Source of the DNA: Ruditapes philippinarum | Lineage: Eukaryota | Direction: 5' to 3' | Assembly (NCBI RefSeq): GCF_026571515.1 | Contig: NW_026865692.1 | Coordinates: 62,001 to 126,000, forward strand | DNA length: 64,000 nucleotides | Shown: piece by piece, positions 22,350 through 61,900 of the stretch | Numbering within the stretch: the first letter of the stretch is position 1 | Layout of the letters: the number at the start of each line of letters is the position of its first letter | Notes under the pieces: model-generated | Databases searched by the model: none | What the model was told of the DNA's origin: nothing | What the model saw: the letters and a program-made list of their open reading frames with translations, nothing else | Program-made: the position numbers and the translations under genes

Positions 22350-23770
22350 GTAAGGTTTTGTTATATCCTTATATCACAGTTGTCTTATTTATTCTAGTAT
22401 ATTCCGCGTCTTACTACTTTACATATGACTTTTGTTGTTGTTTTGTTGTTGTTGTTTTACTTAAAGATTTTATCATTCAGCTAGATTGCTAACATTTTTT
22501 ATTAACTGCTGAGATTGAATGTCGACTGTTTATTTACATAATAATACTAATAATACAAACATATTTATATCATTTTACTTTGTACATCTTAAAAATAATA
22601 AAAATAATTGGGGTTAAATATGTTAATGTAAGATATGTAAATACCAACTATATAATTTGTTCACCGTGATTTTTTAATGAAAATAATTACTAAATATCTT
22701 AAATGATCTGTTTATACAACTTCTTTTCTTCGACTTTTTTAATGCAAATATCTAGGATTCGTTTGTTTATTCTAAGTGTATATATCTACTTCAAGATTTT
22801 TCAAACATAATACCAACTTTTTTAGTTGACTGTGATTATTTAATATAAATTCCTAAGTAAATTGTTTACATTTACAATTTTTTTATCATTTTTAAAATTT
22901 TTAGCAAAAAAAAAAAGAAAATATTTGTATCTCGTATTCGAATAACAAAATCATTTGTATTTTTGTAACACTGTTTATTTGAAATGGCGCACATAATTTA
23001 TATGAGCACTAGCTTATTTAATATGTATATAAAGATACGTTTTCCTAAAGTTTTCTTTATTTTCCGACCAAAAAGACAAACTTAAATGTATGTAATGAAA
23101 AAGTAGAATAACTTTTTTGTTTTAAAAGACATATAAAAACAGCCACGCGTTAAAATTATATATAAGACTAGTAGCCCTTTACGTTATTTCGAGATTTTCC
23201 TGCATTTTGAACAAGTATACTTACATACAATTCTCGTATATACATACCTTACTTTACATCTGTCGCTCTTCTTTTTTGAGGGGATGGGATGGGGGAAGAG
23301 GGGGTGGTGGTGTCATTTTAAAAATATCTTGATCTATAACTCTATAACCTGTATTTGTTTGGCTTTCCCGGGGATCACGCAAGGCGGCCTCCTCGCATCT
23401 CGAGTCAAATACAAGTTTCATATCAAAATATTCTTATAAATCAGTGCTAGCGAAACGAAAACAACGGTAACAGCAAGCTAAATGCTAAATACAAACCATG
23501 TATAGAAATAAATGTGTAAATGTAACATGAAACATGTTGTGTTGATTCTTTAAAGACTGATATGAAATAAAGATTTTAAAATATAGTAAAAGACATGAAG
23601 TTCAATAGTTAAAGGACATGTAGGGAAAAAAACTTGTAACCTATGTAAAGAATATCTACTCTATAATTGAATAAAACACGGTATTTTCCTTTTGTCCGTT
23701 TTTAGGTATAACCTTGTCGTTTCGTTTGTGTATATATACTTTTCATTTTCCCCCCATTTCAGACAACAAC

Positions 23771-25376
23771 ATGATCAAACACTTAGCCCTATTGTTGGTC
23801 GGCGCCCTCGCCGTCAACGCATCCTATTACAGCCGTAAGAGCAAAGGATATCCGATTAAAAAAGGATTCGGTGGCGGTTACGGCAGTATAGGTGGCGGTT
23901 ACGGCGGGAGTATCGGAGGTAGTGGATACGGAGGCGGTCATGGTGGTGGATATGGGAAGAAATATGGTGGTGGATACAGTGGTGGAATGATTAGTGGAGG
24001 AATCGGTGGATACAGTCGAGGCTACGGAGGTGGATACGGAAAAGGATACGGAGGAATTAGTAGCGGATACGGTGGTGGATCTGGATATGGTGGAATTGGA
24101 GGAAGTTACGGCGGTGGACACGGAAAGTTCGGCGGTGGAATTCGAATTGGAGGAGGTTTTGGAGGTTATTATCAAACTAATATTTTCTTTAGCTTTCGTC
24201 TTACACAAAAAGAAAACTTGAAGTTGCCAGCTTTCAAAGAATAAGGGGTAACCTGATATTATGCGTGTTCACGTTTTGAAAATGAATGCTTATTTTTATC
24301 AAAAGAGTGAAACAAAAAATTTGGACATGAAACCAAAACTTTAAAAAGTGAAAACTGGAGTCTCGATTTGATTTAGAATATTCATGAGAGGTATCTCTTT
24401 CACGCCCCACCGGCTAGCATTGTTAGATAAATATGTATTGCTATTAATATCTAACATTATCAAAACATGTTACATATGTTTTTCAGGATATCAGAGGGGT
24501 GGTATTGGAACAGGATATGGCAGTGGATACGGAGGTGGAGCTATCGGAGGTGGTATCGTCGGTGGTATCGGCGGTGGTATCGTCGGTGGTATCGGCGGTG
24601 GTATCGTCGGTGGTTACTACGGGGATGATGATGATGATTTTTATGGCAGATACACCATTGGCTATGGAGGTTCCGGTTCAGGTGTGTACGGGGGATACGG
24701 TAGAAGAACCGGTGGCTACAGAAAATATCCAAGCATCGGCAAGAAATATGGTGGTTATGGCGGAATCAGCGCTGGAATCGGAGGGTAGGCCTAAATTGAT
24801 TTTCTTTTTGTCATGCTAAAGTCAATAGCACTAATTATCATTATTATTTTTATTTCTAATTACCTGTGGTACTGAACAAGTTTCCTCTTTTAATTAAAAA
24901 AACAATTCGAGGCACAATTTTTGGTAAAATATTGCTCAAGATACGGTGCATGGTGTGCGTCGCGTGATCAGACTAAGAAATACCGCATTTATTATTTTAC
25001 TGCAAATCTGATTTGTTGCAGACCTTTGTGCTGTCAAAAATCCAGTAACAGGTTTATAATACATGGGTTATTTGATGGAAAAAAACAAGAACAGATTATA
25101 TATACATTCCTGTTGAAATTAGCCGAGGATTCGAAATAGAATACACACTGATATATAAAGTCTCATCAACATATTCTCATATCAAACATACAAAATTTCA
25201 GTTCTGGATATGGTAAAGGGTACGGCGGTGGAGCCGGCGTTTACGGCGGTGGAGCCGGCGTTTACGGCGGTGGAGCCGGCGGGTACGGTCAAAGTGGATT
25301 TGTATCAAGTGGAGTCGGTGGCTACAGTCAGGGTTATGGATTTGGAGGTGGAAAGAAATTTGGCGGAGGATATTAA
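23771..25376 (+). CDS. Secreted Gly/Tyr-rich (GGY) shematrin-like structural / shell-matrix protein
   Basis: Coding exons 23771-~24164 (signal MIKHLALLLVGALAVNA, then SYYSRKSKGY...GGGYG repeats; weak donor, boundary approximate), 24487-24784 (GGIVGGIG repeats, YYGDDDDDFYG, RKYPSIGKKYGG) and 25202-25376 (GGGAGVY repeats, ends KKFGGGY*). Phases 1 and 2 join in frame. Confidence 0.88.
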
Positions 25377-30077: not shown

Positions 30078-31420
30078 GTATAACTTTTATATTACATTAA
30101 TGTTTGGAAACGGGCATAAAAACATACCTATATAAACTTTAATATGACATTAATTTTTTTGGAAACGGGCATGAAAACATACCTTAAAATTTTCCACTAT
30201 ATAAACTTTTATATGACATTAATTTTTGGAAACGGGCATAAAAACATACCTTTAAATTTTCCACTATATAAACTTTAATATGACATTATTTTTTTGGAAA
30301 CGGGCATAAAAACATACCTTTCAATTTTCCACTATATAAACTTTTATATGACATTATTTTTTTGGAAACGGGCATAAGAACATACCTTTAAATTTTCCAC
30401 TATATAAATTTTTATATGACATTACTTTTTTGGAAAAGGGCATAAAAACATACCTTTAAATTTTTCACTATATAAACTTTTATATGACATTAATGTTTGG
30501 AAACGGGCATAAAAACATACCTTTAAATTTTCCACTATATAAACTTTAATATGACATTAATTTTTTGGAAAAGGGCACAAGAACATACCTTTAAATTTTG
30601 CACTATATAAACTTTTATATGACATTAATTTTTAGGAAAAGGGCATAAGAACATACCTTTAAATTTTCAACTATATAAACTTTTATATGACATTATTTTT
30701 TTGGGAAAAGGGCATAAAAACATACCTTTAAATTTTCCACTATATAAACTTTTATATGACATTTATATGTTGGAAAAGGGCATAAAAACATACCTTTCAA
30801 TTTTCCACTATATAAACTTTTATATGACAATAATTTTTTGGAAAAGGGCATAAAAACATACCTTTAAATTTTCCACTATATAAACTTTTATATGACATTA
30901 ATTTTTTGGAAAAGGGCGTAAAACATACCTTTCAATTTTCCACTATATAAACTTTTATATGACATTAATTTTTTGGAAAAGGGCGTAAAACATACCTTTC
31001 AATTTTCGACTATATAAACTTTTATATGACATTAATTTTTTGGAAAAGGGCATAAAAACATACCTTTCAATTTTCCACTATATAAACTTTAATATGACAT
31101 TAATTTGTTGGAAAAGGGCATAAAAACATACCTTTCAATTTTCCACTATATTAACTTTTATATGGCATTATTTTTTTTGGAAAAGGGCATAAAAACATAC
31201 CTTTCAATTTTCCACTATATAAACTTTTATATGACATTAATTTTTTGGAAAAGGGCATAAAAACATTCCATTAAATTTTCCACTATATAAACTTTTATAT
31301 GACATTAAATTTTTGGAAAAGGGCATAAAAACATTCCATTAAATTTTCCACTATATAAACTTTTATATGACATTAACTTTTTGGAAAAGGGCATAAAAAC
31401 ATACCTTTCAATTTTCCACT
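30078..31420. repeat. ~68-bp satellite array, ~19-20 copies, abutting the stop codon of the minus-strand lectin
   Basis: Unit tatataaacttttatatgacattaattttttggaaaagggcataaaaacatacctttaaattttccac; period 68 (e.g. 30781 to 30849). Confidence 0.95.
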
Positions 31421-34400
31421 TAGGTGCTTTCGTCACCACAGTCACAAATGAAGTTATTCGAACTTGTGCAACTGACGTCTTCCATCTTCCAGGTACTAAC
31501 ACTCTGCATTCTAATACAGTTGTTGGAAGTACTTCCGGTCGGTTTACCACTCTGCCAATCTAAGTCAGTGAAAAGTTCCCCAGTGGGCGCTTCAATAAAC
31601 TGACCCTCCTCCAGTGTATCCATGACACCAAAAGCTACATTACTTTGCACTGTAAATAGAGGAAAATTTGTTTTAAAAAGGTCTCGCAAACTTTTGATCT
31701 TGTTTAGTGATCGTGACCACTGTTTTTATTACCTGCAAAAATGTGACAGGAGTTACAAAATTTTACTCGTTAACAGGTGAAACAATAATGATGGTAAAAA
31801 GTATTTCATTTCCTTTTTCTTATTTATACATGTATATAAGCCGCGTCAGGACAAAACCAACATAATGGGTTTGCGACCAGCATGGATCCAGACCAGCCTG
31901 CGCATCTGCGCAGTCTGATCAGGATCCATGCTGTTCGCTTACCAACTCTATTACAAGTAGAAAAAAACTGATAGCAAACAGCATGGGTCCTGATCAGACT
32001 GCGCGGATGCGCATGCTGGTCTGAATCCATGTTGGTCACAAACGCACTATGTTGATTTTGTCATGACGCGACTCATATCTATTATTGCTTTCGATCGGTC
32101 TGCAAGCATCAGAAGTCATTATCAAAAACAGTACCCGTGAAAAGAGGTAATGCTTCACCTGGCCTTTATTTTGACGTCAAGTATTTTTTTTTATAAATCT
32201 CCTATGTTATCAGTACAATCTGCCAAGGGAGGTAATCACTTTGAGGAGTTTGATGTTATTAGAACAATCTGCCAAGGGAGGTAATCATTGTGAGTAGAAC
32301 AAAGACGCGTTGTGTAAAAGTGGTTCATTTTACTCTGTTAACAGCACAGGCACGAGTATCGGACCTGGGAAGAAAAAATATGACCAGATTGATAAAAAAA
32401 AACCGTGCTCATCTTAAAAGTGTAAAAAAAATGTAAATAATGACCCCCTTTAAAAATATACTGTAAGTTATGAGAAGGCCGGAAACTCCAGATTCGAGCC
32501 TACGGGCAAGGGATTCATTTCTCGGGCCGTTGTGAAAACAATTGGCCAGACAATTAAAAAAAACTATTATCACTATTTCACGTTTATATTAAGCTTCAGA
32601 ATGAGACCAACCCAAAGTCTCTAGCCCTTCCCGTTCATGAAATATCTATCAGGAAACGAGCGACTTCGTGCTGAAAATCCTTGGTAGACTGAATTTCGGC
32701 ACAACAATTCGGTACGTAAACATAGACTAATACATGTATGTCAGCTGACTACGGATCAAAATTACTTGAATTTACTAAATAATATTACTAAATACATTAA
32801 GATGAACAACTCACAGCCGTCAGCAGCATCTAATACACGCGAGATTCGAGTTTCAAACATTTACACGGTCTTTCAATCGCTTTCTACGCCATTAGGCATC
32901 TTGTGTGAAACGTTGCGGTTTTCGTTGCTATTGGCCAATCAGAAGACTCGTTACAAAATATCGAACAGCTGATTGACAATGGCGTAGAAAGTAATCTAAA
33001 GACCGTGGAAAGGTTTGAAATTCGAATTTTGCGTGCATCAGATGCTACTGACGGTTGTGAGTGGTCCAACTTTATGTATTTAGTAATATTATTTAGTAAA
33101 TTCAAGTGATTTTGACCCATACTCAGCTGACATACATGTATTAGTCTATGTTTACGTATCGAATTGCTGTGCCGCAATTCTGTCTACCACGGATTTTAAG
33201 CACGAAGTCGCTCGTTTCCTAGATATTTCATGAACGGCTAGAAGCTTGATGTTGGTCTCATTTTGAAGCTTAATATAAACGTGAAATAGTGATAAAACTT
33301 TTTTTTAATTGTCTGGACAATTGTTTTCACAACGGCCCGGGAAATGAATCCCTTGCACTTACGAACTTTCGCTTTACGTATATGCAGTATTTCGATAGAG
33401 TGGAAGTCAGTGCGCGAACATGCGCTTTGCCATATCTCGTTCAGTTACCGCTCACGTTTTAAACTCGGTTGCTATGAAGCGACACTAAGTGTACATGGCT
33501 TTTTCAACTAAAATATCAGACAGACACATTAAAACAATACACATAAACTACACATTGCATTTGAAATTGATAATCAAACAAATATCTCAATATTCTTACC
33601 GATTTAATGTATTGTTTACATGTGATGACAGCAACGCTGTGTGTTAGATTACTTTCGGTTCAGAAAATTCATTTGTTTACCATCAAAACTGATATGTTTA
33701 CCATAGGAACCATATATAGATAGAAAGCAAATTAAACAAAGGTAAAGAAAAAATTGTCCGTTTCTGAACAAAAAATCGAATAAATAAATACAAAGTCTTT
33801 TTAACATGTCCCTTCTTTGAGTTCATTTGAAAGGGGAATAATTTGGTGGAATTAGACAGGGAAACAGGGAGTTATCTTACATGGCTAGGGAATATGGCCG
33901 ACTGAAATCATGCAAGCAAGTTTGTAAGTGCCTTGCTCGTAGGCTCGAGTTTCCGGCCTTCTCTTAACTTCTAGTATATTTTTAAAGGGGGTCATTATTT
34001 AGATTTTTTTGTTTTTGTTTTTTTGACACTTTTAAGATGAACACGTTTTTTTTTTTATCAATCTGGTCATATTTTTTCTTCCCAGGTCCGATACTCGTGC
34101 CTGTGGTTAACAGTTCTTACTTTGTGAATGTTATAAATAGTGTATTATATTCGTGTAGGTTCATTACTTTATGTATTGAACTCGTTGAATAAAATAACAT
34201 TATGCTTCATAAAGGCTGGCATGACATTATTTTACTAATCTAATTCAATAAATTCAGTACTGAACATAATGGGGGACAGTAGTGGATTATCTTCCCTTGA
34301 TAAAAACCGAGGTTAACCAAAATGTAAATAGGTCAAAATATTTGGAATCCTTTGCTTTTATCGTTGAGTTTTATATAAGACAGGTTGACATATCTTAATC

Positions 34401-44595: not shown

Positions 44596-47500
44596 TCACT
44601 TCTGAAGTATTGTTCGAAATGCAAATGCATCATCATGACCTGAACATCTCAGGTTTGAAATAACTGTAAACTTTCCCGTAGAGAGCTCTATCATTTGTCT
44701 AAGGTCTTCAAAGCTGACACTTCCATCACCGGTTCCTTGCTTAACATCACACGATGCGATCTCCATAGTTACACAATGTTTGTATGTTCCTAGCTCGTCG
44801 ATCAGTTTCTTCAGTGCCCGACTTTCCAGCGAAATTTCAATAAGTCGTATATGTTTAACAGTGCGCCGTGTTGTTAAAGTCAACTCTTTGTCTCGAAGGT
44901 CCATTCCTTTTAATTGTAGGTGACAGAGATTGTATAAACGAGGCAATGTGTCTAGAATCTGATCAACTGTATCTTTCGAGTTAATAAACTCGACTACAAA
45001 GGTGTGTAGATTTGCCGCTGAGGTGATATAACTTGTTAAGAAAGAAGACAAAATAGGTTCATTATGGTCTGCCCAGAATTCCTCTAAAGCTGACGAGTTG
45101 ACCTTCACCCCTGAAGCAAACATGTCCCCAAGCCCGATGATCTTGAGGTTCTTGTGCCCTGAAAGATCAAACACGAACTGCCCGGACATACAGTCATCAT
45201 CAACGTGGTCAGCGCATTTGACACGCGCAATTTTAATCTGAGTCATCTCTTTATTCTGTTCCAACCAGTTGAAAAGCTTTGTAATTAGGTCGTGCTTCAA
45301 AGTAATACAAAACATGTCAATACATCTAATATTCCTCAATGATTGTAACATATTCAAACTTGTTTCAGAAATTTCAATGTACTTTTCATCATTATTCATT
45401 CCTCCATGAATAAGTAAACATTTCAGGGTTTTCAGAGATGCCGCTAGAAGGACCTCAACATCTTCTTTACTCGGATGACCCCACAGTTCTAGTTTTTGTA
45501 GCGAATTCATATCACGCATTTCAAGGTATTCCACTAATTCATGTACTTTTGCTTGTGCTAGCTTTCCTCCGAATTTTACAGACTTAACATTTTTGGTTTC
45601 TGTCAGGTCACATAATGCATTGACATATTTATTTTCCACATCGTTATCGAAATTCAGCAAAACATCTTCCAGCTGATAATGAGGCTCAAAGCCATTGTCA
45701 CGACATTCATTCACGCAGGCAACCATCATATTCTGAAAGTTTTCTTTCAATTCACATATCTCCCAGTAGTCAACAAACGAGTACGTGTTGTTCCGTAGCC
45801 TCTCCGTCAGGGCGTCGTTTGAAAGTGTGGCAACTATACTGTTCAAAACTTTACTGCTCACAGTAGGGTTAAGTCCACAGAGGAATACAAGGAAATTTGA
45901 ATTGGGTAACACAGAATTCAAATCTGGGCATCCTTTAACCACGACGTCAGCCGCATCATCTTGCTCCGTATGTGCTAGGTGTACAGCAGCGAAAAACTCG
46001 TGAAACGTTTTATGAATAAAGAACACACGAGTGTCACGAGCTGTGAGGCTTCTTTGACCTTTGACTTGCGTCAGGATCCCTGCTTTCAACCAAAACTCTA
46101 AGCACTCCGCCGACATTGCTTTCTTTGTCAGCTTTTCAGAAAAAACAAACTTATTTTCGATATCTTGGTTGAAGAGCGTAATGAAAGCTAAGTGAGATAT
46201 GTCTTCTATAAAAGGTGCATATCTACAGCAATACTCGTTGTCTTTGAAACATTCCGGCAGTTGTTTTATCGTGTTTCGTGACGCTGGTATCGGCTGCTTG
46301 GTCAGAAATTTCTGCAGCAAAAGTTCTACTATGTTACAATATAAACCACATCGGGAATCACCCATAGGTTTCTCGTCCAACCATAGGCACATCAAGTACA
46401 ACAGCAACATTGGACTATTCTCAAAGCCAGTGATGTTTCTTTTATTCACCGCCTCGTCAAAACCTTTCAGCTGTAACTCAGATTCACTTTCAGCTTCTTC
46501 ACCAAAACTGGCTTTCAATAAATTAGACATCAGCTTTTGTTTACCAGCAAAGTCGATCCCTTTCATTTCTAGTTGCTGGTCTATTTTGCTTTGCCGTATC
46601 CTTGCAACAGTGAATTTCCAAGGCCGAGTTGTAGTGAAAAATGCGCAGTTTTGTCTTGGTTTTCTAAATGGAATATGTTCCTTTGGGTGTGACCATTCAT
46701 CGAGGCCATCCAACACAATGAGGCAATTCTCTTGTGTTAACACTTTCTCTATAAATTCTCTTCTGTAGCTAGAAGCACGTGCAAGGTTTCTAATAATCTG
46801 TTGTTGTACAATATCATCAACGTCAAGAAGTACAGGGTCCGCTTCTTTCAGGGAAATGTAAAACACAAAATCAAACTCTTTCATAATGTCCTCCTCGTCC
46901 TGAGTAAAGTGACATTCCTTTTGCTCCGTTTCGTTTGCTTGGCACCATATTAAAGCCAGACGTTTTCCAAACACGGTTTTCCCAAGGCCAGCGTCCGCAC
47001 ACAGGTAAATCTCGCGATAACGTTCATTTTGTCCATAAAATATGTCCTTAGCTGACGGTAAAGAAGAAGCGCCTTGGTCAGAATTTCCTTTTTTGTCACC
47101 AGATTTCGCGATGGTTACTGTGGGTGGAACATAGAATTCTAGCAATGGACTGTCAATCTCCTCAAGCACTGGAGAGATAGATGTTGTGCCGTGTTGATCT
47201 TTGATATACTGGATGATGTCATGTTTTAGATCTTAAAATAGATTACAATGCAAATTTAAACTCAGCATCTCGTTAGTCTGTCAATCAATAAATATTGGAT
47301 TTCATGAGGTTAAAACTGTGGTTACTGTTAACAAATAATCTTTTTAAAATTAAGTGTTTTTAATGACAGCACTTGATGGTGTTTGATGATGTATATTTCT
47401 CTTTTATCAAAGGCAATAGATATGGTCTTTACAAATACACTTCTTCCGATAAAATTATGCGCATATTCTCAATTACAGTGTTCAAAATTACCAACAGCCG

Positions 47501-50500
47501 GCAACCAAACTTTTGTTTGTTTGTTTGTTTCATTTTACGCCTTTTCCCAACAGTATTTCAGTCATATAGGCGGGTAGTTTCCTAACCGTCGTTCCTGGAG
47601 AGTTACACCAGTACTAGACTACCTTCCTCCGTGCTAAACTACCAAAGCATCTCCCGGGGATCGAACCCACGCCAGAGAGGTAACTGGATTAGAAGTCATC
47701 GACTCTAACCCCTCCACCACGGAGGCGGTTGCCAACCAAACTAAGACTCTTTCTTGTGTATTTGACTTATGTATTTTGTATAATTTTAAATATCTCACCT
47801 TTCACTAAAGCATTATATTGATTTTGCAGACACTGGTTGACATCTCCCTCTGTGATAGTGATGGAATCATCCTTCAACTATAAAAGAATTACGTCTATGT
47901 TTAACAAATATTAGTAGAACTGTCGATCTTTCTAGGATCCAACAATCGCATCTTCTCGGTTATTTCCGTCAATTTTCCGCATACCGCATACCAGAGATTT
48001 TTGATCGACATAAACAGAACCAATCGGAACATCGGCTATTATTCCTTTAAAGCTGCACGCCTCCAAATGAGCAAATATCAAGTGCGAGATATTTCAATTC
48101 ATTATTTTCATAATTCATGTTTTTTTCTATGAGTGAGTTTCAATGAAAACCATACTTTTATTCAAATAATATGGCGGCTTTAATGGCCATAAAATACCTA
48201 AGATTCTTATATCATTTTGGAAACGTGTCATTTCCTTAGTAGAACTGTCGATCTTTCTAGGATCAAACAATCGCAATTTCTCGGTTATTTCCGTCAATTT
48301 TCAGATAAGAATTATTATTAGTAATAGCCGAGATGTTCCGATTGGTGATCCAACTGACTTGGAGCGGTTCGAACAAACAGCGGCGAGGGTCAAAAGATTC
48401 AGTCAATGACCGTTACCGCTCTGCCAAGGAGTCATACTGTTTTGTATAGATACATATGTATGTAACTTACTGTGATTATTTTCTGGAAAAATTGCGTTAA
48501 AAATTGCGACGGCAAATGCCGATTAATTTTATGTTTTTTTTTTTCCAGAAGTAAGGAAATGCCACTAACCATGTCTAATTTCAATCGAGCGTCCAACGAC
48601 TGAGAACTGTTTTTGAAATCTTGGCTGCATTGTAGAAGTTGTTGTAGTGCGCAGACGACATCTTCTAGTTGCTGGTCGGTTAGAGATAGCTCGCCATTAT
48701 GTCTCACACTATTTACAGTACTTCGTGCCTGTAACATACATGTACAAATATTTTTTTTCAAGTAAATTTTGAGAAATTTTATTTTGAAAATCATAAATAG
48801 ACGTTTGTTATAGGTGATACATTGAGAAATGGGTAGGCTGACTTTGGCTGTGTGTTTAACTTGTTGGGATGTAAAACACAAAATTGAAACGAGACAACAT
48901 ACAATCTGACGCCATTTTGATTTAAAATTCTTATTCTTAGATTAGAATTACTGATATAACAGTTTTCAAAATGAAATAATTTACAATCCCCTATCATTAT
49001 CAACTAAACATAGCTATCTATAATACTAAATTGGTGATGAGATTTGATTGTTTGATTCACGCATACCGGAACTAGCATACGGATTTGACATATGAGTCGC
49101 GTCACGACAAAACCAACATAGTGCGTTTGCGACCAGCATGGATCCAGACCAGCCTGCGCATCCGCGCAGTCTGATCAGGATCCATGCTGTGCGCTTACAA
49201 ACCCTATAACAAGTGAAACTGATAGCGAACAGCATGGATCCTGATCTCGTGTTTTCGCCCCGCGACCTCGCCAAGCGAAAAGTCGAGAATTAACAAGTTT
49301 AAATGGCGGGGTCGCGGATCGAAAACACGCTAATTAGCATAAATGAAACTTTTGCCTATATAATACAATATATTTACAATTTAATATTTAACAAATAAAA
49401 CTTCGCCCCGCGAGGGCGCGGAGCGATAATTTAGAAATAAAACGGAGGGGGCGCGGGGCGAAATTTAATGAAATAAAACTTCGCCCCGCGCCCCCGCTAA
49501 TTAGCGTGTTTCGTCCCGCGATCCCGCCAAGCGAAAAGTCGAGAATTACCAAATTAAAATGGCGGGGGCGCGGGGTGAAAACACGAATGGCACAAATCAG
49601 CCACCATAGCACAGTGGGTAACATAGTTAATTTAAACTTCTCATCCGAATGCGTGACGTGATAACCTTAAACTTATTTTCCCACCCGGAACGGTTGCGTT
49701 AAGAAATTTTATTTCTATGCTTACTCATTCATGCTAAGATAATAACTATCTAACATCATATATGCAGAATATAACTTCAATACGACGGTATGTCCTGTTT
49801 TGACAATGCATTCATGCATACTTAACATGAATTACTTAACATGAATTCAAATGATAAGTGCCTTTCAGAAGTTTGGGCAAGTAATATGATTTTATGCCAC
49901 TTGCCCCTCACCTCTGTTAGTTCAAATCCCGCCGAGGACTTTAGAGTCTTTCATGTGCGGAAGCTATCCATATAGCTTACGGAACATCAGAAGTTCTACA
50001 CAGGTGCCCGCTCGTGCCTGAAATAATGCACGGAGGGGCACCTAAGGTCTTCCTTCATCAGTAAAGCTGGAAAGTCGCCATGTGACCGCTGCTGTGTTAA
50101 ACCAAACAAAAAAGTTGATTTCATATGCAATTTACCATTAAAAGATTAGGTTCATATTTCCCTAAATAATCAGCTCATGCAATTATTTGGGATCTGTGTG
50201 AAAACAGTAACTTGTGTAATAACAGTTATCTGTGTAATAATAGTAATAATGTGTAATAACAGTAATATGTGCAATGACAGTAATTTGTGTAATAACAGTA
50301 ATCTTTGTAATAACAGTAATCTGTGTAATAACAGTAATTTGTGTAATAACAGTAATATGTGTAATTTGTGTAATAACAGTCATATGTGCACTTACATTAA
50401 TTTGTGTAATAACAGCAATCTGTGTAATAACAGTTATCTGTGGAATAACAGTTATCTGTGTAATATTTATAACAGTAATAATGTGTAATAACAGTTATCT

Positions 50501-51461
50501 GTGTAAAAACAGTAATATGTGTAATAACAGTTATCTGTGTAATAACAGTCATCTGTGTAATAACAGTTATCTGTGTAATATTTATAACCGTAATAATGTG
50601 TAATAACAGTTATCTCTGTAATTACAGTTATATGTGTAATAACAGTAATTTGTGTTATAACAATAATCTGTGTAATAACACTTACAGTAATCTGAGTAAT
50701 AACAGTAATTTGTTGAATAACAGTTATCTGTGTAATAACAGTAATCTGTGTAATAACAGTAATATGTGCAATTACAGTAATTTGTTTAATAACAGTAATC
50801 TGTATAATAACAGTAATCTGTGTAATAACAGTAATCTGTGTAATAACAGTAATCTGAGTAATAACAGTAATTTGTGCAATTACAGTAATCTGTGTGCTGA
50901 TAGTAATCTGTGTTATAACAGAAATCTGAGTAATAACAGTAATTTGTGCAAAAATAGTTATAATGAGTAATAACAGTAATAAAGTGTAATAAAAGTAATC
51001 TGTGTAATAACATAATTACAGTTATTATGTGGAAAGTAAGTATGCGACCAAAGTTTGTGTGATACCACACCATGTTTTCATGAAATTTTGCACAGACATT
51101 ATAAAGCTATGTTTCAAATCTTATGACATTGAACCGTCATGAAGCGATGCAATTTTTGCACGTCATCTATATAAGACAAAGATACATGTATGACTCAAAC
51201 AACTTAATGTATAGTAAATCAAGAGATGTATGGTGAAAATGGTATTTATCCAAAACATATATGGTTCGAAATCATGTAACTTTCAGCAAATTTTATTATG
51301 GATACTGTATGTCAACACAATGAGATAAATGTTTGATTCCAGTATCATGAAAATGGCTGACAAGCAGTTCAAGAGATATTTGACGAACAGGAAATTCATC
51401 CAAAAATAATCTCTCCGAAAACGTGCAACTTTAGGGCAATTTAAATTCCAGTGTCTCTAAG

Positions 51462-51498
<37 letters not shown>

Positions 51499-52639
51499 TT
51501 TTATTATGTTTTGCACTGATGAAGGCATATAGCCGAAACGTTTGCAATTAAATTAAATTACTAAATGTTCGTGTTTGTGTGGCGTGTCTGATTATTTTAG
51601 TGTCTCTAAGAGAAGATCAGTTTACGTATTTTTATCTATTTGACTCCAGTACATGTGTAATGACACTAACGCGCACGTGATACACACTGCAAACATGGCC
51701 TTTATTCAAAAACATGTATTATAAATACACTATACAAATCGTACTAACTTTCAGGCAGTATCTCAGTTTGTTTTTTTTTAAACTAGAACTCTGCTAGTCG
51801 GATGTGTCGCCTTGTGAACAATAAAGTTTAAGAGAAATGGCCAGGACAAAAATGGAATATGAAAATTAACAAAGGGCAATAACTCAAAAATTAAGAAATG
51901 CAGAGTACCGGTTCTTGTGCACTGCACTTCGGGTCATTACAAGAAGCATGCATACCAAGTTTGAAGTCAATCCGACTTATAATGACTGACTTATGCTCCG
52001 GACAAGCTTAGGGGAACGCTGACAACGACGCCGACGACAAAAGTAACCCCTAAATGTCGCCTTTTTCAAGGCGACACAAAATTGTGACCATAATGAATTA
52101 CTTACATTTTCACAGACGCAGATGTCTACGTCTCTCTTAAAATCCAAATGATTCATCAATATGTTGACGACGCCATTAAAATCGGTGTCATCAAACGATT
52201 TCTTGTCAAGATAACCGTCAGGTGGCATAAAGCATTTAGCATATTCCCAGTACGAGTTACACCAATATTCTGCATGTGTATTCTTCCATGACGGTTTTCT
52301 ATATACATGACTGTCGCATATTTTCTGTCTGATCTGATCACAGATTCCGCTTCGACATGGGCGTGGCTGGTATTGTTTATGGAATGGACAAGTCTTAGAG
52401 ACGTAATTACAGGACAATCTCGAGCACGGGACAACGCTCAATGTAACACAGCCGAAACAGTATATATTATTGCGCTTTTGTTCTTCTGACCGAACCTCAT
52501 CTAAAACTGTACGGTGAATGGTTTCCAGCTTATTGCAGACGACATCTTGCATTCCCGCTTTAGTGACAGATATCGCGAGGCTAGCTTTGATCCAGTTACA
52601 GAATCCCTTATCACCAAGTTTAGATTTATAGTCAGACAT
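44596..52639 (-). CDS. NLR-like protein: CXorf38/DUF4559-like (HEPN-related) N-terminus + NACHT NTPase + winged helix + degenerate LRR-like C-terminus, ~1135 aa
   Basis: Exons 52639-52106, 48728-48570, 47877-47799 and 47231-44596 (phases 0,0,1; total 3408 nt, open). Motifs: NWIKASLAI, W.N....W....WEYAKCFMP.DG, D..G...ILMN, VNSVRH; Walker A ADAGLGKT; Walker B CLIVLDGLDEW; sensor-1 TTTRP; winged helix FIHKTFHEFFAA; Leu-periodic C-terminus (LQKLEL, LKTLKCLLI, LYNLCHLQL). Confidence 0.88.
47512..47732 (-). mobile_element. tRNA-derived SINE (family C) with 10-bp TSD, in NLR intron 3
   Basis: Near-identical to 19539-19754. TSD caaccaaact at 47502-47511 and 47733-47742. Confidence 0.87.
49094..49246. 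mobile_element. Palindromic MITE family A, copy 8, truncated and fused to a GC-rich MITE half (~49247-49607)
   Basis: Left arm intact. The sequence switches abruptly after ggatcctgatc and ends aaatcagccaccata. Confidence 0.8.
49897..50110 (+). mobile_element. tRNA-derived SINE (family A), 5'-truncated
   Basis: ccacttgcccctcacc...ggaagctatccatatagcttacggaac...caggtgcccgctcgtgcctgaaataatgcacggaggggcacc. Confidence 0.82.
50205..51010. repeat. 18-bp minisatellite (aataacagtaatctgtgt), ~40 copies, in NLR intron
   Basis: Read directly. It produces the spurious NNSNLC / VITVIC ORFs. Confidence 0.92.
51781..52080 (+). mobile_element. Short Helentron/HINE-like element
   Basis: aactag start, aagggcaataactc core, gacgccgacgac microsatellite, 3' hairpin tgtcgcctt...aaggcgaca then aaa. 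Confidence 0.65.
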
Positions 52640-58986: not shown

Positions 58987-61900
58987 TCATTTCTTTTTCT
59001 GCCTTTTCTTCTGTATTCTTTCAACATCTCCTGACTTTATCATATTTCTCCATTTGTCCTTCAGCATCACCCCTGTCCTTGTCGTATTTAAATATTCTTT
59101 TATCTGTGCCCATCTACCGACCCCCATAGTGTTTACGGCATCGTAAAACTCGTACATTTCTTCATCGGTCCATTTTCTCTTCTTGGTGCCTCCATACATA
59201 GATGACAGGTCAGATACAACCGCTGCAGATATATGTAACAAACATATAATACATATATTAAAACTTAGCTTCACATGGTTATACCCAGATGCCTATTTTA
59301 TTTATGATTGAAAAACACTTAGAAACTTTATCCACTGGTAAAAAGTAATTAGCAAAGTACTGTTATAAAAAAATACAAATAATGTTAATTCTAAGCTTAA
59401 ATTTCAGACTTTTAAACATAGACATTCAAATCAGTGTGAATTACCTCATATGAAACAATTATATCATGTTTTAGGAAATACTTTTTTTGCTCTTCTTTTT
59501 GCATAAAGTGAAGCAAAAACTTATACATGTCAATAAAACATTTGGTAAAGACAAGGGGGGATAATGCGAGCTTTTATAAATTAATAAGGACTGTATTTAA
59601 TGGCATAAAAGCATATCACTCATATGACAGGCTGAAAATAAATTTATCTGCAACTTTAATTCCTAGATGAATCAGTTTCAACTTTCTATAAACTTTTGTA
59701 GTATGCTTAAAAGTCTAGATGTATGTTTAAGTCTTCGAAATAATTGCATGGAAACCCGACTTATAGGTGAGTAAATGCATGGAAACCCAACTTATAGGTG
59801 AGTAAATACATGGAAACCCACTTATAGGTGAGTAAATACATGGAAACCAGACTTATAGGTGAGTAAATACATGGAAACCCAACTTATAGGTGAGTAAATA
59901 CATGGAAACCCACTTATAGGTGAGTAAATACATGGAAACCCACTTATAGGTGAGTAAATACATGGAAACCAGACTTATAGGTGAGTAAATACATGGAAAC
60001 CCAACTTATAGGTGAGTAAATACATGGAAACCAGACTTATAGGTGAGTAAATACATGGAAACCAGACTTATAGGTGAGTAAATACATGGAAACCCGACTT
60101 ATAGGTGAGTAAATACATGGAAACCCGACTTATAGGTGAGTAAATACATGGAAACCCAACTTATAGGTGAGTAAATACATGGAAACCCAACTTATAGGTG
60201 AGTAAATACATGGAAACCCGACTTATAGGTGAGTAAATACATGGAAACCCGACTTATAGGTGAGTAAATACATGGAAACCCGACTTATAGGTGAGTAAAT
60301 ACATGGAAACCCACTTATAGGTGAGTAAATACATGGAAACCAGACTTATATGTGAGTAAATACATGGAAACCAGACTTATAGGTGAGTAAATACATGGAA
60401 ACCTGACTTATAGGTGAGTAAATACATGGAAACCAGACTTATAGGTGAGTAATTACATGGAAACCCAACTTATAGGTGAGTAAATACATGGAAACCAGAC
60501 TTATAGGTGAGTAAATACATGGAAACCAGACTTATAGGTGAGTAAATACATGGAAACCAGACTTATAGGTGAGTAAATACATGGAAACCCGACTTATAGG
60601 TGAGTAAATACATGGAAACCCAACTTATAGGTGAGTAAATACATGGAAACCCGACTTATAGGTGAGTAAATACATGGAAACCCAACTTATAGGTGAGTAA
60701 ATACATGGAAACCAGACTTATAGGTGAGTAAATACATGGAAACCCAACTTATAGGTGAGTAAATACATGGAAACCCGACTTATAGGTGAGTAAATACATG
60801 GAAACCCAACTTATAGGTGAGTAAATACATGGAAACCCGACTTATAGGTGAGTAAATACATGGAAACCCAACTTATAGGTGAGTAAATACATGGAAACCC
60901 GACTTATAGGTGAGTAAATACATGGAAACCCAACTTATAGGTGAGTAAATACATGGAAACCCAACTTAAAGGTGAGTCAATACATGGAAACCCGACTTAT
61001 AGGTGAGTAAATACATGGAAAACTGACTTATAGGTAAGTAAAGATGTTATATAAAATCTTACAACGATTGTCATCTGCCACATTTTTTCTTGAAGAGGAT
61101 ATAACCGGTTCGTGTCTGTCAGCACGACCTTTATTTTTCCTGTATTGAAAGTCTGGACTTTCTTCTCCAGATCTACAATAAAATATAGCCAATAATTTAT
61201 TATATTATAATTAAACAAATTAAGCTGACCATTTTCATACTGGTTAGGCTCAGGCGAAATTAATAAGGTCCATTATGCCTCAGAAATGCTATCAATTTTA
61301 TTTATCAAAAACTTCTGATTTTTGGTATCTTAGTACAGTATCCAAAAAATAGGTTGTGATAAGTAGTTGCTGAGAAAACTATTTCGAAAATTTCCTACCA
61401 TTAATGTAGAAAATTAAACTAAGTCGGTAAACAGGAAGTGGATAAGCGACAGACCTGAAATTGAGCCTGTGGAACACGGCCAAAAATTAATCATTTGTTA
61501 GACGATGAACTATTTCTTGCTTCTTTCTCTGTTTGCAATTGGTATAATTATAGTGAATTATTATTTTGTATATAAGTCAAAATACTACTGTTTAAATTTT
61601 GTTGCCTTTATGACACATTACTGCATGTTCAGTGCTACATTCTTAAGTTGTTAAACATCTAATTTTTTTTAGTTTAGTTTAGCTCTAAATCCATTATTAA
61701 AACATGTTTCACATTGCTAAATTTTTAAAAAAATATGGATTTCTAAGACATAATGTGCCTTAAAGTAGAGAGATTTTCCATTGATAAAGTAACCACTACT
61801 TTGTTATAAGCATTAAGGGATACTGAGGCAAATTAATGACAAATACTAAAATGATCGTATGTACTCAAAATATGTTAAAATGACATTTTGTAAACAAATT

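Follow-up and report, generated by a model that had tools for sequence, protein, structure and literature searches.

A transcribed clam NLR gene with a CXorf38-type HEPN head and a remodelled HEPN motif

The genome of the clam Ruditapes philippinarum contains a transcribed gene for an NLR of the known HEPN type, in which a DUF4559/CXorf38 head precedes an intact NACHT module and repeats modelled as LRR-like, and in which the HEPN motif has lost its canonical Arg and carries another one helical turn further along. The product is likely to be an immune effector whose RNA-cutting site has been rewired, or else a disarmed partner of such an effector. The layout itself has been described before; the novelty lies in how large the clam radiation is, in its division into canonical and Arg-shifted heads and in the conservation of the remodelled pocket. 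The gene lies on the minus strand at positions 44596..52639 of the 64,000-nucleotide stretch analysed (hereafter the window), which corresponds to positions 62,001-126,000 of the forward strand of contig NW_026865692.1 in assembly GCF_026571515.1.

Gene structure and domain architecture

Built from the window coordinates, the gene comprises four minus-strand coding exons (Table 1) separated by introns that are all of the GT..AG type, with matching phases of 0, 0 and 1. The spliced coding sequence of 3408 nt specifies 1135 aa with one stop and a frame open throughout, in agreement with the four-exon, in-frame model of around 1135 aa put forward in the initial annotation. The further proposal that exon 1 is spliced towards the NACHT exon stood as far as exon 3: exon 3 (letters 25-103), exon 2 (104-261) and exon 1 (262-799) are contiguous in a single 799-nt contig from run X1, which was taken as RNA by guess, and exons 3 and 2 are also joined in a contig from run X2. 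In run X15, likely to be DNA, the sequence continues past the exon-1 donor into the intron. None of the run contigs crosses the joint between exons 3 and 4 with at least 31 letters, the X1 contig having 24 letters left over; this joint is backed by the sequence together with full-length collinearity with the Mercenaria orthologues P0002 (60.6% identity) and P0003 (58.3% identity). Raw RNA reads are thin: in 4% of X21 the depth over the exon bins is approximately 0.4-7, and in X23 it is close to zero.

Table 1. Coding exons and functional features of the gene, in window positions
Feature	Position	Strand	Evidence
Coding exon 1, aa 1-178: N-terminal portion of the DUF4559/CXorf38 domain (long first helix, Cys/His insert, Asp153)	52106..52639	-	PF15112 E 9.3e-12; X1 and X2 contigs
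Cys/His-rich insert: C61, C64, C72, C77, C84, H87, C95, C100, H111	52307..52459	-	Conservation in 221 domains
Asp153, likely partner of His188	52181..52183	-	Conservation; putative counterpart of D134 in human CXorf38
Coding exon 2, aa 179-231: motif helix and final head helices	48570..48728	-	Joined to exons 1 and 3 in X1 and to exon 3 in X2
Remodelled HEPN motif V183-N184-S185-V186-R187-H188; Arg180 one turn upstream	48699..48716	-	Sequence; motif census
Coding exon 3, aa 232-258: linker helix	47799..47877	-	Gene model; contigs
Coding exon 4 (47231-44596), first part: NACHT module including helical domain 2 (end approximate)	45679..47231	-	PF05729; motifs; NLRC4 match of orthologue model
Within exon 4: Walker A; Walker B; sensor-1 Arg460; winged-helix His664	46975-46998; 46696-46722; 46624-46626; 46012-46014	-	
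Coding exon 4, last part: divergent beta-alpha solenoid of LRR-like type (~aa 776-1135); stop codon	44596..45678	-	P0002 model

The N-terminus had been likened to CXorf38/DUF4559, and exon 1 does match PF15112 (DUF4559) with an E value of 9.3e-12 and 45.5 bits against a curated cut-off of 27, as did 24/24 relatives scanned. Pfam scans of the exons and of relatives likewise bore out the claim that the head is not a death fold, and PF18738, the DZIP3/hRUL138-HEPN head, gave no match up to E 1 on exons 1, 2 and 4 or on P0002. Seven residues of an insert in the head are near-invariant among 221 domains (C61 in 220, C64 in 220, C72 in 215, C77 in 216, C95 in 218, C100 in 221 and H111 in 217), and this insert is likely to form one or two zinc sites; a Zn ribbon inserted into the HEPN domain has been described for CXorf38 (PMC3710099). 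In human CXorf38, which has the motif RNEIMH, a dyad of D134 and H167 has been proposed (bioRxiv 10.64898/2026.05.28.728550). Asp153 is the putative equivalent of D134 and the likely partner of His188; the position is occupied by Asp in 216 of the 221 domains and in 20/20 distant paralogues.

The NACHT module in exon 4 scores above the cut-off for PF05729 (E 1.5e-6) and, as the initial annotation had stated, retains its NTPase motifs, namely Walker A (ADAGLGKT), Walker B (LDGLDE), sensor-1 (TTTRP) and the winged-helix His in FIHKTFHEF. Downstream, the model of P0002 has strand-helix units repeating at 783-1138, which form a C-terminal solenoid, and the best structural match to the full-length model is closed NLRC4 (4kxf; E 8e-23, TM 0.45/0.55, approximately 1000 columns). 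A Pfam scan of the exons of the window copy returned no LRR match; the ESM Atlas rows for the tail are LRR clusters with scores of at most 0.82, which serve as a lead only. Judged by the orthologue model, the C-terminus is LRR-like and the gene has the architecture of a NACHT-LRR STAND protein. Neither this C-terminus nor the loss of the canonical HEPN Arg in the window copy had featured in the initial annotation.

Motif types, family size and descent

HEPN RNases are characterised by the motif R-phi-x-x-x-H, in which Arg occupies position 1 and His position 6. In the window copy this region reads A179-R-S-T-V183-N-S-V-R187-H188; the canonical Arg is therefore replaced by Val183, the His is present as His188, and the sole motif Arg, Arg187, adjoins that His at position 5. 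The head had previously been read as ending in a HEPN-like RxxxxH, which needs to be corrected in this respect. A single helical turn separates positions 1 and 5 of the motif helix (residues 175-189 in P0002 numbering).

A census of the motif covered 221 heads, consisting of the window copy, 88 of 100 sampled genome loci and 132 of 178 database proteins, once 12 loci lacking a single match to exons 1 and 2 and 46 proteins lacking the motif-bearing part had been set aside. Arg was present at position 1 only (Arg1) in 50 heads, at position 5 only (Arg5) in 162, at both in none and at neither in nine, including one doubtful exon-2 match, although sampling followed the chosen queries and the ratio of Arg1 to Arg5 is not that of the genome. 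Arg1 is missing from 171 of the 221 sampled domains, and the canonical motif is found in 25 of the 89 genome heads. Position 5 is Phe in 40 of the Arg1 heads, and position 1 is Gly in 130 of the Arg5 heads. The latter also have Arg or Lys at position 2 in 134/162 cases, where the window copy retains Asn, and keep His at position 6 in 157 and the partner Asp in 160. Among 20 further DUF4559 loci in the genome, most of them more distant, 19 read R-N-x-x-x-H.

Both motif types belong to a large family. The initial annotation had suggested counting paralogues, and three profile or sequence searches of the clam's own genome, using exon 1, exon 1 of a canonical paralogue and PF15112, found 150, 150 and 128 places, respectively, among the matches listed, the canonical query having at least 150. 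Merged, these give at least 326 DUF4559 loci on 273 contigs, a lower bound on matches rather than a gene count, as it includes broken copies and possibly haplotigs, 2/89 sampled heads being at least 97% identical to a neighbour. Broken copies are common, with internal stops in several matches and split NACHT frames. Of 80 loci, 27 are followed by a NACHT exon no more than 10 kb downstream, and 10 of 20 remaining loci that were extended have one in the next 10 kb; the corresponding figure for the canonical set is 5/20 within 10 kb. Among database proteins of at least 700 aa, NACHT is present in 64 of 69 Arg5-type and 17 of 19 Arg1-type sequences. The NTPase motifs are intact in both types (89 NACHT modules on the Arg5 side and 20 of Arg1 type), the canonical-type receptors forming a NACHT clade of their own (19 sequences, support 0.90).

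In a FastTree phylogeny of 117 heads, from which the motif columns were removed and which was rooted on the most distant group, all Arg5 heads fall in one clade (support 0.82) nested within canonical heads, indicating that the Arg5 form is derived. The studied genome shares it with Mercenaria, Mya and Dreissena, and the window gene is 54-65% identical to its Mercenaria orthologues in every domain, with the same V/N/R/H motif. The exception inside the clade is provided by the Dreissena proteins P0023 and P0024, which read RNEICH, with Arg1 present and Arg5 absent. Their exon 1 is 97-98% identical to that of an Arg5 gene, and their exon 2 is approximately 55% like Arg5 genes as against 35-38% like canonical ones; they may represent a second switch, an exon swap or a gene-model error. 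With a single Arg5 clade and one doubtful exception, the mutual exclusion of Arg1 and Arg5 amounts to one or two events, not 212.

Purifying selection acts on the head, the HEPN exon being the most constrained part of the gene. Among eight copies from the main Arg5 radiation, exon 1 has the lowest mean pairwise dN/dS, 0.14, the value being 0.25 in the NBD-WHD, 0.28 in HD2 and 0.34 in the LRR region (26-28 of 28 pairs usable, the pairs not being independent). Dereplication at 60% identity left 62 heads of the Arg5 clade, of which 62 retain Asp153, 59 Arg187, 58 His188 and 55 Arg180, on a par with the Cys ligands. All six Arg codons are used for the position-5 Arg among 62 genome copies without Arg1, of which 59 have this Arg.

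Candidate functions of the remodelled site

The reading that we tentatively prefer, and to which we would give just under an even chance, is that of an NLR activated by oligomerisation whose CXorf38-type HEPN heads constitute a rewired, predicted RNase, the activity being extrapolated from NLR and HEPN biology. At rest, the receptor would adopt a closed, NLRC4-like shape, as in the model of the 60%-identical orthologue. On sensing a cytosolic ligand it would, like other NLRs, oligomerise, and the HEPN heads would thereby be paired to create a composite site, as modelled on the orthologue. This site is predicted to cut RNA by means of His188 and Asp153, with Arg187, one helical turn from the lost canonical Arg, replacing it as the source of positive charge; translation arrest or cell death would be the expected outcome.

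This composite site was modelled as an ESMFold2 homodimer of P0002 residues 1-240 with Zn, a stand-in of approximately 60% identity, with the alignment unused and zinc lying outside the calibration. The homodimer scored 0.34, narrowly above the mark of 0.32, against 0.00 for the best control, with a pLDDT of 86 and runs agreeing in at least 66% of contacts. That mark was reached by 21/30 solved microbial homodimers, 0/23 microbial monomers and 7/16 animal homodimers, and the model's memory of solved HEPN dimers may have lifted the score above it. The modelled interface contains D154, R189 and H190 (D153, R187 and H188 in the window copy) at the two-fold axis, with cross-chain contacts 190-189' and 189-189'; position 1 is not among the confident contacts.

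A rewired RNase is favoured by the observation that Arg1 and Arg5 never occur together and lie one helical turn apart, with Arg5, His6 and Asp all conserved. The intact NTPase motifs, the low dN/dS of exon 1, the use of six codons for the Arg, the interface of the dimer model and the Arg5-like exon 2 of P0023 and P0024 also argue for it. Counting against it are the few tree events behind the exclusion, the marginal dimer score, the change at position 2 in most Arg5 heads and the failure of fold searches to single out HEPN. The first Arg is essential in Las1, where position 5 sits at the base of the site and is thought not to be directly catalytic (bioRxiv 10.1101/760058). As far as the literature was covered, no CXorf38-family protein has been reported to act as an RNase, and such activity is a prediction.

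As the main alternative, the Arg5 head may be unable to cut, binding RNA, nucleotides or a partner or just dimerising, such that the receptor is a sensor recruiting canonical (RNxxxH) executors or a decoy for pathogen inhibitors; we regard this as a realistic possibility, somewhat less probable than the rewired RNase. Sensor-executor and decoy pairings of this kind are found in paired plant NLRs. The absence of R1 from 162/162 Arg5 domains, with position 2 mostly Arg or Lys, fits such a role, and the large canonical-motif radiation in the same genome, with its own NACHT clade, could supply the executors. R1 is essential in the HEPN enzymes that have been tested (bioRxiv 10.1101/760058). In the dimer model, the Arg189-Arg189' contact could fill the groove instead of forming a site, and the basic pocket (R180, R/K184, R187) suits binding as well as catalysis. 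Yet the retention of His6 and Asp, in the most constrained part of the gene, exceeds simple decay, and no head-to-head sensor-helper gene pairs were noticed in an unsystematic look at the 10-kb stretches read.

It is unlikely, by our estimate, that the remodelled pocket is a putative site for other chemistry or for a narrow substrate, such as one tRNA, a cyclic or 2'-5' oligonucleotide or another phosphodiester, rather than a general RNase. Positions 1, 2 and 5 changed together and were then fixed across Mercenaria, Mya and Dreissena, as would be expected of such a site, and changes to the motif shift the cleavage fidelity of Las1 (bioRxiv 10.1101/760058). Less probable still is the suggestion that the window copy is a decaying or non-immune paralogue in which the motif change is meaningless. 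The many broken family members and the low or near-zero raw-read depth in X21 and X23 point that way, but this reading has already been largely refuted by the 1135 open codons, by spliced contigs in two runs and by the Mercenaria orthologues with their matching motif and identity in every domain.

As a broader form of the rewired-RNase reading, clams may possess hundreds of RNase NLRs that form two sister lineages, of which the first has the textbook HEPN site and the second an Arg moved by one turn (G/V-x-x-x-R-H); the probability of this we put somewhat further below even. If true, a working HEPN site would be scored as dead by the Rx4-6H rule, and an animal NLR would kill by cutting RNA.

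Relation to known HEPN-NLRs

HEPN-NLRs have been predicted to correspond, in animals, to the bacterial STAND defence proteins that bear enzymatic heads; those parts of the related literature that were covered report no experimental test of any HEPN-NLR. The studied genome supplies a natural matched pair, in that canonical and Arg-shifted heads are each expanded on intact NLR bodies. The pair bears on whether animal NLRs act as RNases and on whether the Rx4-6H rule misses active HEPN enzymes, and is relevant to human CXorf38, whose activity is itself a prediction; were the shifted heads dead, it would point to a network of sensor and executor NLRs in these animals, a group that is both farmed and invasive.

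The gene had been presented as possibly belonging to a little-studied receptor class, a novelty that was overrated, since CXorf38-HEPN-NACHT (PMC3710099), DUF4559-NACHT (PMC8298618) and DZIP3-HEPN NLR proteins (PMC9646362) are all in print. In 2013, CXorf38 was classed as a HEPN family, of the Swt1-like kind, that is fused to NACHT in cephalochordates and cnidarians (Anantharaman et al., PMC3710099); these fusions share with the clam genes the head family and its Zn-ribbon insert, the fusion to a NACHT NTPase and a proposed role in RNA-directed defence. By contrast, the family is called 'Active' there and the phyletic list, in the part covered, names no mollusc, whereas the clam lineage has lost the canonical Arg, fixed Arg5 and radiated. 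The same architecture was recorded in another clam in 2021, DUF4559 being present in 45 of 99 NACHT proteins encoded by Corbicula fluminea 'NLRP' genes, although the covered part of that report gives a domain count without a link to HEPN or RNases or an analysis of the motif (PMC8298618). Searches of the open literature, from which subscription journals are mostly absent, turned up neither the two clam lineages nor the change from Arg1 to Arg5.

Likewise, HEPN-NLRs have been noted in nine invertebrate taxa (PMC8662601), and the pearl oyster has more than 50 NACHT proteins with the sister DZIP3-HEPN head, Rx4-6H being kept in 194/202 of its DZIP3-HEPN proteins (PMC9646362). These resemble the clam genes in combining a HEPN head with NACHT and LRR, in the lineage-specific expansion in a bivalve and in the proposed antiviral RNase activity (PMC9646362, PMC8662601), but the pearl oyster uses a different HEPN family (PF18738), whereas the clam heads are of the CXorf38 type and of two motif types. 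In the orthologue model, the order NBD-HD1-WHD-HD2-LRR and the closed state are those of NLRC4 (PDB 4kxf), from which the clam protein differs in having a putative enzyme as its head where NLRC4 signals through a CARD, at a sequence identity of approximately 12%.

DUF4559 copies and subfamilies in the clam genome

Around 60 exon-1 matches, among those listed in the search of the clam's own genome, are 80-95% identical to L106, a paralogue of the studied gene with the canonical HEPN motif (R-N-x-x-x-H), and, judged on sequence, the canonical-motif copies close to L106 are a young burst. The same motif is present in a distant subfamily (L151-L157) in which a single exon holds most of the DUF4559 domain and is followed by very long single-exon frames of 1000-1650 aa, against which the NACHT profile found no match. 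Another subfamily (L158-L163 and L167) is missing most Cys ligands of the Cys/His-rich insert within the head; its motif is canonical in L158-L163 and not in L167, and no NACHT exon lies near these loci within the genomic stretch read at each.

Head domains with other predicted partners in bivalves

In a predicted Dreissena protein of 485 aa (P0021), an Arg5-type head, having lost the first-position Arg and carrying one at position 5, is joined to a peptidoglycan-recognition amidase domain (PF01510, profile match E 1.4e-17) in place of NACHT; as a predicted gene model, this may represent a HEPN-PGRP sensor-effector fusion. A single predicted Mercenaria protein of 1419 aa (P0035) has two stretches of DUF4559 together with a Death domain, and DZIP3-HEPN also matches it weakly; this mixture could be the product of a merged gene model.

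Intronic repeats and neighbouring genes

Sequencing-run depth reaches up to 1e5-1e6 over the short repeats in the studied gene's introns. Elsewhere in the window, the Gly/Tyr-rich protein exons, which had no Pfam match, encode a product that resembles shell-matrix glycine-rich proteins.

Coordinates of features in the window and of example loci in the clam genome
Feature	Position	Strand	Basis
Very high copy short repeats, introns of studied gene	47540-47900, 49000-49370, 49740-50100, 51570-52070		Read depth
AT-rich tandem array, intron 1 (between coding exons 1 and 2)	50150-51020		
Gly/Tyr-rich protein exons, signal-peptide-like start	23675-24800	+	Sequence
C-type lectin exon	31420-31725	-	PF00059, E 5e-4
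Myb-domain exon	58987-59292	-	PF00249, E 3e-13
L151-L157 examples	G000:C3171:16500-26499; C5236:8900-18899
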